From contig CAWFFS010000010.1 of assembly GCA_963815145.1 (NCBI GenBank), positions 178,860 through 242,859 of the forward strand: a stretch of DNA of 64,000 nucleotides, read 5' to 3'. Below the pieces are notes generated by a model. It did not search any database. It was not told where the DNA came from and worked only from the letters and a program-made list of their open reading frames with translations. Of the stretch, positions 60,578 to 64,000 are shown piece by piece. Position numbers and translations under genes: made by a program. This DNA comes from an uncultured delta proteobacterium. Lineage in GTDB: Bacteria; Desulfobacterota; DSM-4660; Desulfatiglandales; HGW-15. Within the stretch, counting starts at the first letter, position 1; each line of letters begins with the position of its first letter.

Positions 60578-63262
60578 TTAACCTTTGTATTCTTTAAAGC
60601 CTGTCATCAAATCACTGAATGTTGTAGGTTTATATTTATGAAACCCCTCTTCACCGACAAAAACATAATCAAAACGTAAATCCTTTTGCGCATTGTTTAT
60701 ATCTTCACACCACTGTTTCAGCCGATTCATTTTTTCAGGTACATCAATTTCTTCACGGCCTTTTGTTTCCACGATAACAATATCAGTTTCAGTGACCTTC
60801 ACCAGAAAATCAGGGTAATAGTTTGAGGGGAAACCATCCTTATTGATGTAATCGATAACAAAATGAACAGCCAGAAAATTCTTTGCATATGAAACGATAT
60901 CGTCACACTTTTCCAGGAAAGCCGTAAATTCAAGTTCAAGCTGGCTGTCCCCTATGATTTTATTAAATATTGATTTTTGAGGGATAATATAACCCTGGTC
61001 CTTTACAACAAACGGGCGGGTTTTTCTTAACTTGATATAGTCCCGGATTTCGGTCTCACCTTTATCCTTTACAGTCAATTCATTGATATGTCTTTTAAAC
61101 TCTTCAATAACTGTTTTTGTGGCATTTAATTCAGAAAGATTCCTCAAGGTATTCAAGTCATCTACATCAACATGTTCACTAAAGAGGAAATCAGTGATAA
61201 ATTCCTTCACCTTGCCATAAAGTATATCATAACCGCTTACCAGCCTGAGGTCCTTCATGATCGCCTTTGTAAAATATCCGATTACACTTCTGTAATCAGC
61301 CACTGTCGTGGTATTGAGCAAAGTTATATGATTAATTTCATTGGTGGTTATGTCCTTGAATACAATCTCCCTCTTTTGCTCCTCTGAAAACTGGAGATAT
61401 TGAATTTTTTCATGGCTGAAGGATGCAGGATCAAGTTCCGAAATATTTTTGTATTCCCTGTATATCCTGGGTGCAAGAACCGGAATTTGGATATCCAGCT
61501 TTTCAATATCCTTTTTTATATTCTCAGTATCTACCTCGACAATTAATGGTGCTTTAGGACCGGTGCCCTCACCCATCGGTTTTCTCTCAAGTTCAACACC
61601 TTCACTCTGTATGGATTCAACAAATTCCATAAATGCATCAGTTCCAACAATGCTTACGTATTCTTCCACATCGGTTCCGAAATACATCCTGCGGAGACCG
61701 CGACCAAGTGTCTGCTCAGGAAGAATATTGCTCCTTGCAGTATACGCCCGCAACCCGACTATAGTAGTAACATTCCGGACATCCCAGCCTTCCTTCAGCA
61801 TAAGGACCGATACAATAACCTTAAATGGACTGTCCCAACTGTCTATTTTATTTGCCTGTTCACGAAGCCTTTCCAGTTCCTCTTTGCTTTTACCTGAAAC
61901 AGCTTCGGATATTTCTCCGCTCCGGTTTGTATGTATTGTCATAACCGCATCTTTGAACTCAGGAAAATTCGTTTCGAGGTATTCATGAACCTCATCACAG
62001 TTTTTCGTATCATCGGTCATGATAAACAGTATGGCTTTTTTGCCGAGCTTTTCATGTTCAGGATACACCTTCCGCCATTCTTCCACTCCCAGGTTAATGT
62101 AATCGGCGTATCTCTCAGTAAAAAGGGCGCTCTGTCGTTCCGCAAGCTTTGCCCTGCTGGCACTGTCCGGGAGCACCGGGTGCTTTACAACATTCTGGGA
62201 AATCGCTTCAACCAGGGGATAGTCCGATATTGTCTGAACAAAGATTGCCCCGTTGTTATGTTTGGGTGTTGCAGTTACATCAACCTGCAATGAAAGGAAA
62301 TTTCCCTTTTGAAGCAGCTTATTATGTATATCCTGAATGGACTTGAACCAGGCCAAGTTTGAATCATGTATATGATGGGCTTCATCATTCAGGACAACAA
62401 GTTCGTTAATATCCCTGACGATTTCACCTAAGTCTACTTTGGAATCTGTTGTTTTGCCGGTCGGCCTTTTACCGAGAAAATAGTCCATGGTGTTTTCATC
62501 AGAGAAACTGGTTTCCTCAGTATCCGAAGAATAGACCCTGTGTATATTTGTAAGAAATATATTTCCGGTCTTTCTAACGATGCTGACCTCATCCTGGATA
62601 TGCAGGGTGAGTTGAAAGTCATCCTGCCAGTTCTGCCCATCATAACCATTATCAGGCAATACAGGATCTTCGAAGAATATACGCAGCCCGTCAAAGTCAT
62701 TGCGGATTCGGTCAAGGACAATAATATTGGGGGCAATAAGCAGGAAATTTCTTGCAAGGTCTGAGTCCGCCTCATATGTCTTATGAAAATAAGCCCAGGT
62801 AAGAATCAGGCTCATAACTTTGGTTTTGCCGCTCCCCGTAGCCATTTTAACTACCAGCCTGCGCCAGTTTTCATCAAACATCCCGGCAGAAACAGCCTGT
62901 GATGAGTCATAGCGTAGGAGATCATATTTATCCTTGAACTTAACAACATCATAAAGATAGATGATTGTTTCAACTGCTTCCCGTTGTGCAAAATAATACT
63001 GGAAGGGAATAACTGATCCATCAGGCTGTGGAATAAGGTGTTCTGTTCTGAACCACCAGTTCATAAGAGAAACACTTGTTTTACTTGCACCTTCATAACC
63101 ATTTTCGCGCCATTCATGTATTTCCCTGCGGAGCATATGCACAAGGGGCGGAAGCAGCTTTTCATAACTGGATTCACGCAACGCTTCATCAGCCGGGAAC
63201 CAGCGAATATCCGGATCCAGAATTTCATAGGGAGTGGATGGGAAATCAGGATGTATGGCCAT
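60578..63262 (-). CDS. Type III-like restriction enzyme Res subunit (SF2 DEAH helicase with C-terminal PD-(D/E)xK nuclease)
   Basis: Walker A 'MATGSGKTKVM'. 'LNDEAHHI' (DEAH). 'QTLGRGLR' (motif VI). C-terminal 'YYPDFLV...VIVETKG' nuclease motif. A DNA-methyltransferase C-terminus lies upstream on the same strand. Confidence 0.75.
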   Translation of the reverse strand: MAIHPDFPSTPYEILDPDIRWFPADEALRESSYEKLLPPLVHMLRREIHEWRENGYEGASKTSVSLMNWWFRTEHLIPQPDGSVIPFQYYFAQREAVETIIYLYDVVKFKDKYDLLRYDSSQAVSAGMFDENWRRLVVKMATGSGKTKVMSLILTWAYFHKTYEADSDLARNFLLIAPNIIVLDRIRNDFDGLRIFFEDPVLPDNGYDGQNWQDDFQLTLHIQDEVSIVRKTGNIFLTNIHRVYSSDTEETSFSDENTMDYFLGKRPTGKTTDSKVDLGEIVRDINELVVLNDEAHHIHDSNLAWFKSIQDIHNKLLQKGNFLSLQVDVTATPKHNNGAIFVQTISDYPLVEAISQNVVKHPVLPDSASRAKLAERQSALFTERYADYINLGVEEWRKVYPEHEKLGKKAILFIMTDDTKNCDEVHEYLETNFPEFKDAVMTIHTNRSGEISEAVSGKSKEELERLREQANKIDSWDSPFKVIVSVLMLKEGWDVRNVTTIVGLRAYTARSNILPEQTLGRGLRRMYFGTDVEEYVSIVGTDAFMEFVESIQSEGVELERKPMGEGTGPKAPLIVEVDTENIKKDIEKLDIQIPVLAPRIYREYKNISELDPASFSHEKIQYLQFSEEQKREIVFKDITTNEINHITLLNTTTVADYRSVIGYFTKAIMKDLRLVSGYDILYGKVKEFITDFLFSEHVDVDDLNTLRNLSELNATKTVIEEFKRHINELTVKDKGETEIRDYIKLRKTRPFVVKDQGYIIPQKSIFNKIIGDSQLELEFTAFLEKCDDIVSYAKNFLAVHFVIDYINKDGFPSNYYPDFLVKVTETDIVIVETKGREEIDVPEKMNRLKQWCEDINNAQKDLRFDYVFVGEEGFHKYKPTTFSDLMTGFKEYKG

Positions 63263-63283
63263 TAAATATTTCTCCTTACTAAA

Positions 63284-63388
63284 CCGCTAATGAACGCGAA
63301 TAAACGCTAATATTTTTATCTTTTAATTTGTATTCACTATTTTTCATTTACGTTTTTTAAATTCGCGTCTATTGGCGTTCATTAGCGT
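63284..63388. repeat. 28-nt inverted repeat arms (ATTAGCG/CGCTAAT-periodic) flanking an AT-rich spacer, between the GxxExxY gene and res
   Basis: CCGCTAATGAACGCGAATAAACGCTAAT (63284-63311) against the reverse complement of 63361-63388, ACGCTAATGAACGCCAATAGACGCGAAT (24/28). The right arm overlaps the stop codon of the GxxExxY ORF. Confidence 0.7.
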
Positions 63389-63807
63389 TTCCTTCGGTTT
63401 TCTGTCGTATTTGCAAACCTTTTCCACTCTAATTTAGTGGAACCAAAATTGATAAGAATACCAAGAGGCATTCCTGATGCTTTGAGATAATTTAAGATTT
63501 GCGCTTCTTCTATCTCGGTAAGCCTCTTTATTGCTTTTATCTCTACTATTATGGAATCAAAGCATAAAAAGTCTGCGTAATATCTTTTTTCAAGTATCTG
63601 TCCTTTGTACTTGATTTTAATTTCTTTCTGGGCAGTAAAAGGTATTTTATTTACAGCAAACTCCAGCATTAATGCTTCTTCATAAACTGCTTCGAGGAAT
63701 CCACAGCCCAGCTCATTGGATACTTCCATCGCAGCACCAATGATCTTATATACTTCATCCTTAAACAGTAATTCTCGTTTATTAAGGTCCATATAGCTAC
63801 TCCCCAT
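63382..63807 (-). CDS. GxxExxY family protein (PD-(D/E)XK nuclease-like)
   Basis: 'GCGFLEAVYEEAL' (GxxExxY) and 'YADFLCFDSIIVEIKAIK' (D...ExK). ATG at 63792 is an alternative start with a GGGAG RBS. Confidence 0.8.
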   Translation of the reverse strand: MGSSYMDLNKRELLFKDEVYKIIGAAMEVSNELGCGFLEAVYEEALMLEFAVNKIPFTAQKEIKIKYKGQILEKRYYADFLCFDSIIVEIKAIKRLTEIEEAQILNYLKASGMPLGILINFGSTKLEWKRFANTTENRRKR

Positions 63808-63809
63808 TT

Positions 63810-63884
63810 AACCGCGAATGAACGCTAATATTCTTTTCATTATTTTTCATATTCATTAGCGTCTATTAGCGTTTATTAGCGGTT
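63810..63884. repeat. second inverted-repeat module of the same arm family, between the GxxExxY gene and the mod stop codon
   Basis: AACCGCGAATGAACGCTAAT (63810-63829) against the reverse complement of 63865-63884, AACCGCTAATAAACGCTAAT (18/20). The 10-nt periodic units are TCATTAGCG TCTATTAGCG TTTATTAGCG. Confidence 0.7.
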
Positions 63885-64000
63885 TCACTTTTTGCCACCT
63901 ACAGTCACTTCTGCAATTTTCATAGTGTCATTCCCGAAAATATCAACTACCTTAACTGCAATTTTATATCGCCCCGGTGGGCATTCATGGAAAACACTTT
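63885..64000 (-). CDS. C-terminal end of a DNA methyltransferase (Type III-like Mod), partial at the window edge
   Basis: The open frame to the window edge ends '...YKIAVKVVDIFGNDTMKIAEVTVGGKK*'. From memory, an 'AVKV(V/I)DIFGNDT' tail is characteristic of N6/N4 DNA methylases that pair with res helicases. Only 37 codons are visible. Confidence 0.5.
   Translation of the reverse strand, partial: SVFHECPPGRYKIAVKVVDIFGNDTMKIAEVTVGGKK

Follow-up and report, generated by a model that had tools for sequence, protein, structure and literature searches.

We find that a Type III mod-res operon in the window, the whole 64,000-nucleotide stretch analysed here, is interrupted by an AT-rich, self-contained cassette that sits exactly in the TAATG stop/start overlap of the two genes, the operon being otherwise intact around it. 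The cassette displays the layout of a family in which a GxxExxY PD-(D/E)XK gene is bracketed by its own inverted arms, each made of 2–4 phased 9–10-nt units.

A cassette in the stop/start overlap of mod and res

The 37 aa of mod that lie inside the window end in ...AVKVVDIFGNDTMKIAEVTVGGKK. A public 5.6-kb contig (L001), 100% identical over the junction, lengthens the protein to at least 720 aa, and the extended protein matches PF01555 (N6_N4_Mtase, 1.4e-44) and the PADLOC model MTase_III (9e-114). This bears out the first-pass annotation, which had recognized a methyltransferase C terminus at the window edge and proposed extending the sequence upstream to see the full gene. The Walker A, DEAH, motif VI and C-terminal nuclease motifs that it had assigned to res are readable in the translation (GSGKT, DEAH, QTLGRGLRR and PDF...VETK); the protein matches PF04851 (ResIII, 2.7e-17), PADLOC REase_III (2e-23) and, weakly, C-terminal endonuclease families, and is as long as its homologues (893–903 aa, 74–88% identity).

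Features of the interrupted operon (window coordinates)
Feature	Position	Strand	Remarks
Type III mod (DNA methyltransferase) gene, 3' end	63885..64000	minus	stop TGA 63887-63885; remainder past window edge
Whole inserted cassette	63263..63884	minus	622 nt; no intergenic DNA here in empty-site homologues
Arm A (left-type), AACCGCTAAT AAACGCTAAT AGACGCTAAT	63855..63884	minus	three phased 10-nt units; abuts mod stop codon
Arm B (right-type), TATTAGCGTTCATTCGCGGTT	63810..63830	minus	pairs with arm A (hairpin module 1)
GGGGAG Shine-Dalgarno of GxxExxY gene	63800..63805	minus	7 nt upstream of ATG 63792
GxxExxY gene	63382..63792	minus	136 aa from ATG 63792 (likely start); PF13366, TIGR04256; PD-(D/E)XK nuclease fold
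Arm C (left-type), AAACGCTAAT GAACGCCAAT AGACGCGAAT	63361..63390	minus	overlaps last three GxxExxY codons including TAA stop
Arm D (right-type), ATTAGCGTTTATTCGCGTTCATTAGCGGTTT	63281..63311	minus	pairs with arm C and with arm A
Shine-Dalgarno and spacer for res, AGTAAGGAGAAATATTTA	63263..63280	minus	AAGGAG at 63277-63272
Type III res gene	60578..63262	minus	894 aa, full length; SF2 helicase motifs and C-terminal PD...ExK nuclease

Comparison with insert-free mod-res pairs places the cassette boundaries in the TAATG overlap. In the nearest Res relatives with an empty site (L163, 87% identity; L164 and L165, 86%; L082, 85%), mod runs over the start of res as ...GGAGGTAAAAAGTAATGGC, the TAA of mod running into the ATG of res with no intergenic DNA. 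Judged against these sites, all 622 nt separating mod from res are insert, with a GC content of 0.34 compared with 0.43 for the window. The empty sites thus substantiate the earlier suggestion that a small selfish or accessory cassette had entered the ∼620-bp junction of two normally adjacent or overlapping genes. Among 67 homologous junctions (80 further loci examined), mod and res abut in 35 and are separated by other, unrelated genes in 32. Genes of at least 10 unrelated families have taken the slot, including KilA-N, RhuM, HepT/MNT, DUF3800, AlbA_2, GIY-YIG, Bro-N, DUF488 and IrrE+DUF4411; a KilA-N gene is present there in the closest Res relative (L162, 88%). The GxxExxY gene is not universal at this position: it is found at only one of the 80 further loci (L126, where mod lies off the contig), and the L126 protein is 43% identical, belongs to a different clade and has different repeat units.

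The cassette opens with hairpin module 1, followed by the GxxExxY gene and hairpin module 2, and closes with a Shine-Dalgarno spacer. Its arm starts directly after the upstream stop codon, which in L002 is itself part of the arm. In the empty sites, which read gtgGGAGGtaaaaagTAATGgc, the ancestral GGAGG for res is located within the last mod codons, and the cassette-borne Shine-Dalgarno takes its place. AAGGAG is present upstream of res as annotated, but it is supplied by the cassette and is not the gene's own. A portable Shine-Dalgarno is found in the window, L126, L002, L166 and L167; in L126 the 27 nt preceding res are a copy, with one base different, of the 27 nt preceding the GxxExxY gene. 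The insertion is built as non-polar: Shine-Dalgarno and spacer at its right end restore translation of the downstream gene.

The GxxExxY gene and its repeat arms

The middle gene matches PF13366 (7e-42) and TIGR04256 (GxxExxY, 9.5e-45). Its strand and family had been correctly called, but the length of 141 aa corresponds to the mechanical ORF from 63807. The second ATG is the likely start, because GGGGAG precedes it, homologues begin MD.N.RE and the public gene call is also 136 aa; the order right arm, Shine-Dalgarno, ATG recurs in L166, L167 and L126. The protein contains G36xxE39xxY42, D79, E89, K91 and Q103 (141-aa numbering), and the GxxExxY motif, D79, E89 and K91 are among the 30 columns invariant in its homologues. 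Foldseek matches of an AlphaFold2 model (pLDDT 87) are Cas4, lambda exonuclease and 3ijm. The invariant residues and the confidently predicted fold suggest that the nuclease is likely active. Sequence comparison places the protein in none of the canonical homing-endonuclease families tested, and no PADLOC defence model matched the cassette.

The gene is bracketed by repeat arms, as noted in the first-pass annotation. There are four, built of phased 10-nt units (consensus RAACGCKAAT) and forming two hairpin modules. They are real and non-random: the unit pattern occurs seven times in the window, always at the mod-res locus, against 0.14 expected. Module 1 (arms A and B) pairs over 21 nt (90% complementary) around an AT-rich 24-nt loop and folds as single-stranded DNA at -12.6 kcal/mol (z -4.2); module 2 (arms C and D) has a 49-nt loop (-20.1 kcal/mol, z -5.0). 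Arms A and D form an outer terminal inverted repeat of 31 nt (90% complementary). Hairpin folding z-scores for the cassette range from -4.2 to -5.5, and its RNA folds into strong hairpins (z -5.1). By inverted-repeat analysis, the first codons of the gene (CCTTAATAAACGAGAAT) are a decayed left-type arm. No Rfam family was matched.

Inverted arrays of 9–10-nt units recur across the 81 GxxExxY genes or cassettes that we surveyed from many phyla, in a family with more than 7,900 matches; an inverted repeat spans the gene in 54 of the 81. In the clade of the window, 66 of 94 core spacings are 10 nt; other clades have spacings of 9–10 nt. A[AT]CC invariably forms the outermost unit, the cassette termini being A[AT]CC...GG[AT]T, and many members have their start codon inside the left arm. 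The core motif tracks the protein clade across host phyla, and 32 hairpins are located 700 nt or less from the genes, while the 429 kb of more distant flank contain none; we thus conclude that the arms belong to the GxxExxY gene. Co-inheritance alone could explain the link between clade and motif. Gene-less hairpin copies adjoin genes, in tandem in L126, and 600 kb of unrelated loci yielded one solo hairpin. The arms of the window and L166 (80% amino acid identity) are 74–83% identical, except for one arm at 61%, compared with 43–47% for loops and 50% for third codon positions; by this comparison the arms are conserved above the neutral level (∼80% versus ∼50%). Arm mismatches show no RNA-strand bias in a test of modest power (39 G·U-type versus 37 A·C-type; 35 versus 29 in local hairpins only).

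Genomic contexts and related systems

Upstream neighbors of GxxExxY genes are co-oriented in 61 of 72 cases and downstream neighbors in 60 of 73 (together ∼84%), at a median gap of ∼95 nt. They span ∼100 Pfam families, without a common functional theme. Near relatives reside in differing contexts (L166 adjoins motA/motB, L167 another gene), and the closest relatives are in non-R-M contexts. We detected no transposase in the loci examined, where the neighbors are ordinary operon genes, and no consistent target-site duplication flanking the arms. Identical proteins (P0032, P0017, and the PF05635 protein P0249) always share the same context and thus give no indication that the cassettes have moved recently; any movement is rare. 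Family members are found in 6 of 72,556 plasmid records and in none of the phage collection, so that a vehicle for spread between phyla is not evident. Two PF05635 four-helix-bundle genes, which do not encode nucleases, have the same arm layout, suggesting that the arms may work without a cargo nuclease.

Free-standing homing endonuclease genes between conserved genes (“intronless homing”), such as phage T4 SegF and MobE, are likewise small nuclease genes lodged at the junctions of co-transcribed, highly conserved genes; only some of the homologous loci carry them, and their neighbors are left undisrupted. They are not known to have inverted-repeat arms of their own, however, and GxxExxY genes are chromosomal in many bacterial phyla and absent from the phage collection. 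In REP/RAYT systems (REPIN), short inverted repeats flank the gene for a Y1 (HUH) transposase and gene-less hairpins also form; the cassette instead encodes a PD-(D/E)XK enzyme, its gene-less hairpins are not dispersed over the genome, and the gene itself is multi-copy and operon-embedded. Like integron gene cassettes (ORF plus attC hairpin), the GxxExxY cassette has a promoterless ORF followed by an imperfect hairpin, co-orientation with its neighbors and a hairpin-ORF-hairpin layout, and the tandem hairpins of L126 add to the resemblance. Its arms lack the attC R''/R' cores (RYYYAAC/GTTRRRY) and consist of phased tandem units, and GxxExxY cassettes stand singly in ordinary operons, not arrayed beside an integrase. 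Accessory genes embedded in R-M operons are known for Type I hsd loci; there too an unrelated gene lies at a subunit junction and the R-M genes are not inactivated. Unlike other R-M junction inserts, the GxxExxY cassette carries its own arms and is mostly found outside R-M loci.

With the intervening sequence (IVS) of 23S rRNA, whose internal ORF encodes S23p (PF05635), the cassette shares its size (0.4–0.6 kb), AT-richness relative to the host, ∼30-nt terminal inverted repeats forming a stem, one small ORF and a sporadic presence/absence distribution, and both are regarded as selfish. The 428-nt Coxiella burnetii IVS has a GC content of 36% versus 42.5% and a terminal stem of 28 bp that RNase III cleaves (PMC4990558). 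PF05635 genes with the cassette-like arm layout occur in operons near the loci studied here. The cassette differs from the IVS in its location (a protein-coding operon rather than an rRNA helix), its cargo (a PF13366 nuclease, where the IVS encodes a four-helix bundle), its arms (phased 10-nt units whose cores are clade-specific) and its Shine-Dalgarno for the downstream gene; excision of the cassette by RNase III is a prediction.

Weighing the explanations

The best reading, to which we give about an even chance, is a selfish operon-riding cassette resembling the 23S rRNA IVS; its arms probably serve the cassette's own nuclease as binding arrays. An IVS-like element acting mainly as RNA is possible but unlikely. 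Host RNase III would cut the arm stems and release the cassette from the polycistronic transcript, rendering the insertion harmless; the cargo protein would have no role in arm recognition, and spread would occur through ordinary recombination and horizontal transfer of conserved flanking genes. The layout (short AT-rich insert, 28–31-bp terminal stem, small ORF) and the strong RNA hairpins fit this view, as does the occurrence of the same arms with PF05635, the classical IVS ORF family, inside protein operons. Flanks as conserved across phyla as mod and res (74–88% amino acid identity) would allow any insert to spread by homology, which would also account for the hotspot at their junction. 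Yet G·U pairs are not favored on the transcribed strand, arm sequence is conserved beyond pairing alone, a stem leaves the tandem phased units and clade-specific cores unexplained, and Rfam returned no match. We consider it quite unlikely that the family is domesticated and not mobile, comprising host-beneficial, autoregulated small nucleases (for example in repair, defence or recombination at variable loci) with the phased units as operator arrays for self-repression. Phased arrays, direct as well as inverted, are characteristic of operator or centromere-like sites, and a start codon within the bound region, strong purifying selection on the protein, stability in place and very many paralogues are all consistent with it. 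The lack of a PADLOC match and of a functional theme, variable presence at orthologous junctions, low GC relative to the host and a parasitic-looking position within unrelated operons argue against it.

A passive passenger, in which the arms bound a non-autonomous, MITE-like element mobilized by a transposase in trans and GxxExxY is cargo, seems very unlikely. Defined terminal inverted repeats, the gene-less and solo hairpins and similar arms on a non-nuclease family would be expected of it, but hairpins are essentially limited to GxxExxY genes, the arm motif tracks cargo clade and not host, and neither target-site duplication nor transposase was seen in the loci examined. The first-pass annotation had also considered the protein a functional third component of the system. 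Such a role, for example as a regulator or auxiliary nuclease that the Type III R-M operon has co-opted, we regard as highly improbable. The gene is intact, on the same strand and within the operon, three cassettes of its clade (window, L002 and L004) adjoin homologous mod genes, and a second clade occupies the same junction in L126. However, the R-M genes beside the L002 and L004 cassettes are decayed, the closest homologues lack GxxExxY, and 79 of the 80 other loci do so as well. Since the one other homologous locus with GxxExxY carries a different clade, and homologous junctions are empty or otherwise filled, and given the ∼100 unrelated contexts and closest relatives outside R-M loci, a third R-M subunit is not supported.

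As a selfish operon-riding cassette, the element would have arms acting in cis as its ends, arrays of sites, phased at roughly one helical turn, that its own nuclease would bind sequence-specifically on duplex DNA. Nuclease and arms may promote rare copying of the cassette to new sites via break-stimulated recombination, a spread akin to homing and unlike cut-and-paste transposition. In the transcript, the arms would fold into 21–30-bp stems resembling the terminal stem of the 23S rRNA IVS, which may be RNase III substrates. For the host system, the likely effect would be loss of mod-res translational coupling, with no new activity gained. While the insertion itself is ordinary, the arm architecture of the large, uncharacterized GxxExxY family seems not to have been described previously.

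The mod-res junction and its insert

The locus lies on the minus strand in the order mod, GxxExxY gene, res (see table). The methyltransferase C-terminus and the res helicase-nuclease that the first-pass annotation had placed at its two ends are both borne out. A 5.6-kb public contig (L001), whose junction is 100% identical to that of the window, extends mod to at least 720 aa and matches PF01555 N6_N4_Mtase (1.4e-44) and PADLOC MTase_III (9e-114). The translation of res shows, in addition to its profile matches, the motifs GSGKT, DEAH, QTLGRGLRR and PDF...VETK of an SF2 helicase with a C-terminal PD-(D/E)XK nuclease; matches to C-terminal endonuclease domains in the profile search are weak. 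A Mod methyltransferase, a Res helicase-nuclease and a mod gene 5' of res on one strand, the features that define Type III, are all present, with order and strand as in such systems and a 622-nt insert between the two genes. The Res family is very conserved and widespread, with full-length identities of 74–88% in many phyla.

Features of the mod-res junction (window coordinates)
Feature	Position	Strand	Description
mod 3' end	stop TGA 63887-63885	minus	C-terminus ...AVKVVDIFGNDTMKIAEVTVGGKK*; 37 aa visible, ORF enters from the window edge
cassette	63884-63263	minus	622 nt, mod to res; GC 0.34 (window 0.43, res 0.41)
arm A	63884-63855	minus	first base directly 3' of the mod stop codon
arm B	63830-63810	minus	pairs with A; AT-rich 24-nt loop
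arm B exit			GCGGTT-AAATGGGGAGTAGCTAT-ATG, start of GxxExxY
GxxExxY gene	start 63792 (second ATG)	minus	136 aa, likely start
arm C	63390-63361	minus	spans the last three codons and stop of the GxxExxY gene
arm D	63311-63281	minus	pairs with C; AT-rich 49-nt loop
arm D exit			GCGGTT-TAGTAAGGAGAAATATTTA-ATG, start of res
res	63262-60578	minus	894 aa; PF04851 ResIII 2.7e-17, PADLOC REase_III 2e-23

In the nearest Res relatives (public loci L163, 87%; L164 and L165, 86%; L082, 85% identity) mod and res overlap (...gtgGGAGGtaaaaagTAATGgc). These empty junctions are of the GGAGGTAAAAAGTAATGGC type: the stop codon of mod and the start codon of res share bases, and the SD sequence of res falls within the mod Gly-Gly codons. 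At 88%, L162 is the closest of the Res relatives, and its junction is occupied by a KilA-N gene. Among 80 further homologous loci (70–85% identity) the two genes abut in 35, are separated by inserts of 57–2,309 nt in 32, and lack a mod end in view in 13, so that 32 of the 67 scorable TAATG junctions (loci among L082-L165) are occupied. The inserts belong to at least 10 unrelated families: KilA-N, SLFN_AlbA_2 with HATPase_c_4, DUF3800, MNT and HepT toxin-antitoxin pairs, HTH-IrrE with DUF4411, DUF488, GIY-YIG, Bro-N, RhuM and an unannotated 461-aa ORF. GxxExxY occurs at a single one of the 80 (L126, mod off the contig), with a protein 43% identical to that of the window and arms of the CCACGAAT type. 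Several of the KilA-N inserts end in ...GGK(K)* like mod, recreating the TAATG overlap with res.

A survey in which junctions abut or hold other inserts, and hold GxxExxY once, argues for insertion into a general hotspot and against a conserved third component. On this comparison the ancestral state is the TAATG overlap, and the entire 622 nt (63884-63263) are insert. The earlier suggestion that a small selfish or accessory cassette had entered the operon junction is thus upheld, and comparison with mod-res pairs that lack the insert has fixed its boundaries. Its competing suggestion, that the middle gene is a functional third component, has lost ground: GxxExxY is not a conserved part of the system, and we regard the locus as an intact Type III system with a passenger, not as a new three-gene system.

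The res gene had been credited with a ribosome binding site of its own. An SD sequence is indeed present, but it derives from the cassette and not from the ancestral operon. At the L126 junction (1-1070), where four gene-less tandem hairpins precede GxxExxY and three follow it, GxxExxY and res are each preceded by 27 nt (ggttcac[g/a]ataaaggaaaaaccatATG) that differ between them at one base, which identifies the translation-initiation region of res as cassette-derived. Over 23 positions the right flank of the window cassette agrees with the ancestral 3' end of mod at 14, a suggestive, non-decisive match; L126 argues for a cassette origin of this spacer and against its descent from that mod sequence by copying and divergence.

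Cassettes of the window clade also lie beside homologous mod genes in L002 (130-3040) and L004 (4400-5000), both with decayed restriction-modification (R-M) systems. In L002 an arm provides the mod stop codon (…GGKNR*) and is followed by a Bro-N/DinD-like gene, and res is internally deleted (aa 1-102 joined to 618-893); in L004 the system is reduced to scrambled pieces of mod 3' of the cassette.

Cassette anatomy and the GxxExxY protein

Two left-type arms (A, C) and two right-type arms (B, D) form two hairpin modules, A/B and C/D, whose loops share a common stretch. All four arms are built from 10-nt units of the pattern RAACGCKAAT or its complement. This pattern occurs seven times in the 64 kb, always at the cassette locus, against 0.14 occurrences expected, and the repeat arms that the first reading saw bracketing the middle gene are therefore real. 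Arms A and D form an outer inverted repeat (31 nt, 90% complementary) that encloses everything else. Folded as single strands, the two hairpins give z-scores between −4.2 and −5.5, and local hairpins prevail when the full cassette RNA is folded. The first codons of the GxxExxY gene are a decayed left-type arm, and each right-type arm is followed by an SD sequence and an ATG.

We found no sigma-70-like promoter in the cassette and no terminator in the arms, so that these scans do not show the hairpins to act as transcriptional insulators. An Rfam scan of the cassette returned chance matches only (microRNA precursors, E 0.4–0.8), with no known RNA family and no rRNA. In the window clade a stop and a start codon overlap, as in TAATGA, within each 10-nt unit (63855-63884 in the window, and homologous left arms); the 10-nt period shifts the frame by one base from unit to unit, so that a set of three places stops and ATGs in all three frames. 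We dropped this as a general rationale for the units, since clades with 9-nt units do without it.

A same-strand GxxExxY gene with a PD-(D/E)XK-like product had been called between mod and res, and this call stands; its proposed length of 141 aa is less likely than 136 aa. The second ATG has GGGGAG 7 nt upstream, homologues begin MD.N.RE, and the public gene call is also 136 aa. The protein matches PF13366 (PDDEXK_3; 7e-42, 142.9 bits against a cut-off of 22) and TIGR04256 (9.5e-45, 151.7 bits against a cut-off of 35). PF13366 is the sole ORF match in a Pfam search of the cassette, which recovered no recognised transposase (DDE, Y1/HUH, serine or tyrosine). Among 44 aligned sequences 30 columns are invariant, including G36xxE39xxY42, D79, E89-x-K91 and Q103. 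An AlphaFold2 model (pLDDT 87, pTM 0.81) has the canonical PD-(D/E)XK core, alpha-beta-beta-beta-alpha-beta, and at the level of this prediction confirms the fold. The closest Foldseek neighbours in the PDB are Cas4 SSO0001, lambda exonuclease and a 145-aa restriction-endonuclease-like protein (3ijm); since the best TM-scores are ∼0.4–0.5, no specific function follows from them. Sequence searches of PADLOC, PHROGs and the PDB gave no match, and the function of the GxxExxY family is listed as unknown (PMC3424549).

A shared cis-architecture of GxxExxY genes

GxxExxY homologues number at least 7,900 at E<1e-5 among the matches listed, many of them on contigs of ∼1 kb. We compared 80 loci whose proteins are 53–69% identical to that of the window, from many phyla (hosts include Phycisphaerales, Holophagaceae, Leptospirales, Chloroflexota, Bacteroidota, Verrucomicrobiota and Nitrospirales). 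Throughout the flanks read the layout is the same, a gene between inverted arms of 2–4 tandem units, and a strict ungapped test detects a gene-spanning inverted repeat in 54 of 81 cassettes. The unit core is CGCNAAT in the window clade and CACGAAT/G, CGCAGAT or CACAAAT elsewhere (the arms of another clade read CCACGAAG); it tracks the protein clade, not the host phylum. Cores are spaced by 10 nt in 66 of 94 spacings of the window clade and by 9–10 nt in other clades. A[AT]C invariably stands ahead of the outermost unit, so that the cassettes have defined termini, A[AT]CC...GG[AT]T. In many members of the window clade the start codon lies within the left arm (aaccgcgaATGAACGCGAATGAACGCGAA), hence the recurrent N-termini MNANERE and MDANERE. 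Arm-gene-arm is the commonest form; the window, L002, L166 and others are flanked, on one side or on both, by additional hairpin modules that hold no gene. A likeness of some cores to DnaA boxes (TCCACA) was dropped, as it fails for the window clade (CCGCG).

Repeat units are sometimes translated. In L009 (3130-3260) about seven tandem GAACGCGAAT units run into the ORF, and many homologues (for example at the termini in L009, L011 and L016) have repeat-encoded extensions, MNANEHELMMNANE... or a C-terminal ...HANERQ. Diverged GxxExxY copies may lie within a few kb of one another, three in 8.4 kb in L038 and two in L055 (Marinilabilia, Labilibaculum).

The hairpins are confined to GxxExxY genes: we count 32 within 700 nt of such a gene, none in 429 kb of farther flank and one solo copy in 600 kb of Res loci, which rules out a dispersed host repeat or a dispersed population of the REPIN or MITE kind. 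The sole hairpin away from GxxExxY in the ∼1 Mb examined is of the CCACGAAT type (L108:8280-8345). Between the window and L166, whose proteins are 80% identical, five of six arms are 74–83% identical and one 61%, compared with 43–47% for the loops and 50% for third codon positions. Arm mismatches of the G·U and A·C types are about equally frequent (39 versus 37 in gene-spanning repeats, 35 versus 29 in local hairpins) and bear no RNA-strand signature.

The cassettes sit among ordinary operon genes (81-cassette set). Neighbours are co-oriented in 61 of 72 cases upstream and in 60 of 73 downstream, at a median distance of ∼95 nt, and represent ∼100 Pfam families, among them rml/epimerase sugar genes, PAS sensors, ABC transporters, a tRNA synthetase, GatB and a few R-M genes. 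The closest relatives of the window protein (80–84% identity) lie in unrelated contexts, L166 beside motA/motB and L167 beside another gene. Identical proteins were always in the same context in the two clusters sampled, with none at different sites, and a direct repeat that could represent a target-site duplication is not consistently present in the flanks of 28 cassettes. Mobility of the cassette is slow. The family has no obvious vehicle, with members in six of 72,556 plasmid records and none in the phage collection.

In L011 (4447-6072; Amarolinea) and L016 (Hydrogenedentota) the cassette is followed, directly 3' of GxxExxY, by homologous sequence encoding NPDVL(T/S)CIANLS.DEVFTPP, which we take to be a methyltransferase N-terminus; this would be another recurrent R-M association. 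Over the whole set, two downstream neighbours match Pfam Eco57I.

Related elements and a proposed mechanism

The closest analogue of the cassette is the ORF-bearing intervening sequence (IVS) of 23S rRNA. Both are small and AT-biased, with a terminal stem of at least 20 bp and a single small ORF. The cassette differs in lying between protein-coding genes and not in helix 9, 25 or 45, its ORF belongs to PF13366 and not to S23p/PF05635, and it adds phased-unit arms and a portable SD sequence to the IVS-like plan. The Coxiella IVS, for example, is 428 nt long with a 28-bp terminal stem cut by RNase III and an S23p (PF05635-family) ORF; its GC content is 36% in a genome of 42.5%, and it is held to be selfish, its mobility being unknown (PMC4990558).

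Among other elements, free-standing homing endonuclease genes share with the cassette the presence/absence pattern between conserved genes, and cleavage of the empty site is putative. The cassette is not an insertion sequence, since it has terminal inverted repeats but neither a transposase nor a consistent target-site duplication. REP/RAYT (REPIN) elements are ruled out by a PD-(D/E)XK enzyme in place of Y1 and by the lack of dispersed hairpins, and integron cassettes by termini (A[AT]CC...GG[AT]T) that do not consistently fit the attC cores RYYYAAC/GTTRRRY.

Two PF05635 genes (23S_rRNA_IVP, four helix bundle; L164:79-447 and L175:2001-2366) have the layout of a GxxExxY cassette. In both loci (L164:60-550, L175:1964-2545) the start codon falls inside a left arm of tandem GGTGAAT-type units, and the stop is followed by a right arm in inverted orientation or by a hairpin. 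From these two cases, armed mini-cassettes may be a broader class in which the cargo varies. Curators of databases have noted that there are many copies of GxxExxY and four-helix-bundle genes and that these lie inside operons; we found no paper describing such GxxExxY/PF13366/TIGR04256 or four-helix-bundle/IVS cassettes.

What the window holds is an AT-rich cassette, a predicted nuclease gene with its own arms, that sits in a mod/res overlap, leaves both genes intact and furnishes an SD sequence for res; cassettes of this kind are found in all manner of operons. We propose that the arms are the cassette ends and would serve as arrays of binding sites for the cassette's own product on duplex DNA. 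This is favoured because the units are phased at about one helical turn and their cores are clade-specific, and also because sequence, not just pairing, is constrained and mismatches have no RNA-strand bias. The GxxExxY nuclease would also drive break-stimulated recombination that, on rare occasions, copies the cassette. On transcription the arms would necessarily fold into 21–30-bp stems, plausible substrates of RNase III, and insertion into the overlap would cost mod and res their translational coupling. Taken as a whole, we consider this mechanism about evenly balanced between right and wrong. Least secure is the step in which the nuclease recognises the arms; two non-nuclease PF05635 genes share the layout.

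The same stems, and the parallel with rRNA, are what an RNA-level, IVS-like element processed by RNase III would present; the comparison of G·U with A·C mismatches, an indirect test, found no RNA-strand bias, and we judge such an element unlikely. A domesticated, autoregulated nuclease is compatible with the 30 invariant columns of the protein and with start codons inside the left arm; with neighbours that have no function in common and a gene present or absent at orthologous junctions, we think this reading quite unlikely. A passive, MITE-like passenger would account for terminal inverted repeats with defined termini; the hairpins are confined to the vicinity of GxxExxY genes, no transposase lies in the loci examined, and this account strikes us as very improbable. 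That GxxExxY is a true third R-M component, to which its place between mod and res and the arrangement in L126 might point, is extremely improbable given its occurrence at one of 80 further homologous junctions. Extending the duplex-binding mechanism to the family, GxxExxY cassettes, perhaps with those of PF05635, might form an unrecognised class of minimal autonomous elements of about 0.45–0.65 kb, in which a nuclease recognises clade-specific phased end arrays and copies itself into operon junctions while stop and SD signals hide the insertion from the host operon; we put this forward tentatively, as a rather improbable generalisation.

The locus itself adds one more case to a familiar pattern, in which an R-M operon hosts an accessory or selfish gene; the gene here belongs to an annotated family. 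The mod/res overlap as a hotspot that has captured at least 10 accessory families bears on the accretion of cargo by defence loci. In the literature searched we found no account of the family-wide cis-architecture or of how it parallels rRNA IVSs. Phased 9–10-nt inverted arrays, cores that track the clade, arms conserved above neutral and a start codon often within the left arm make up a precise architecture shared by PF13366/TIGR04256, a huge family of unknown function, which thereby becomes testable for binding, cleavage and RNA processing. The origin and mobility of 23S rRNA IVSs have been an outstanding question since the 1990s, and operon-embedded relatives offer a more tractable system for it. 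If the generalisation is true, a minimal autonomous element would give a function to many thousands of genes across most bacterial phyla and would unite them with the rRNA IVSs.
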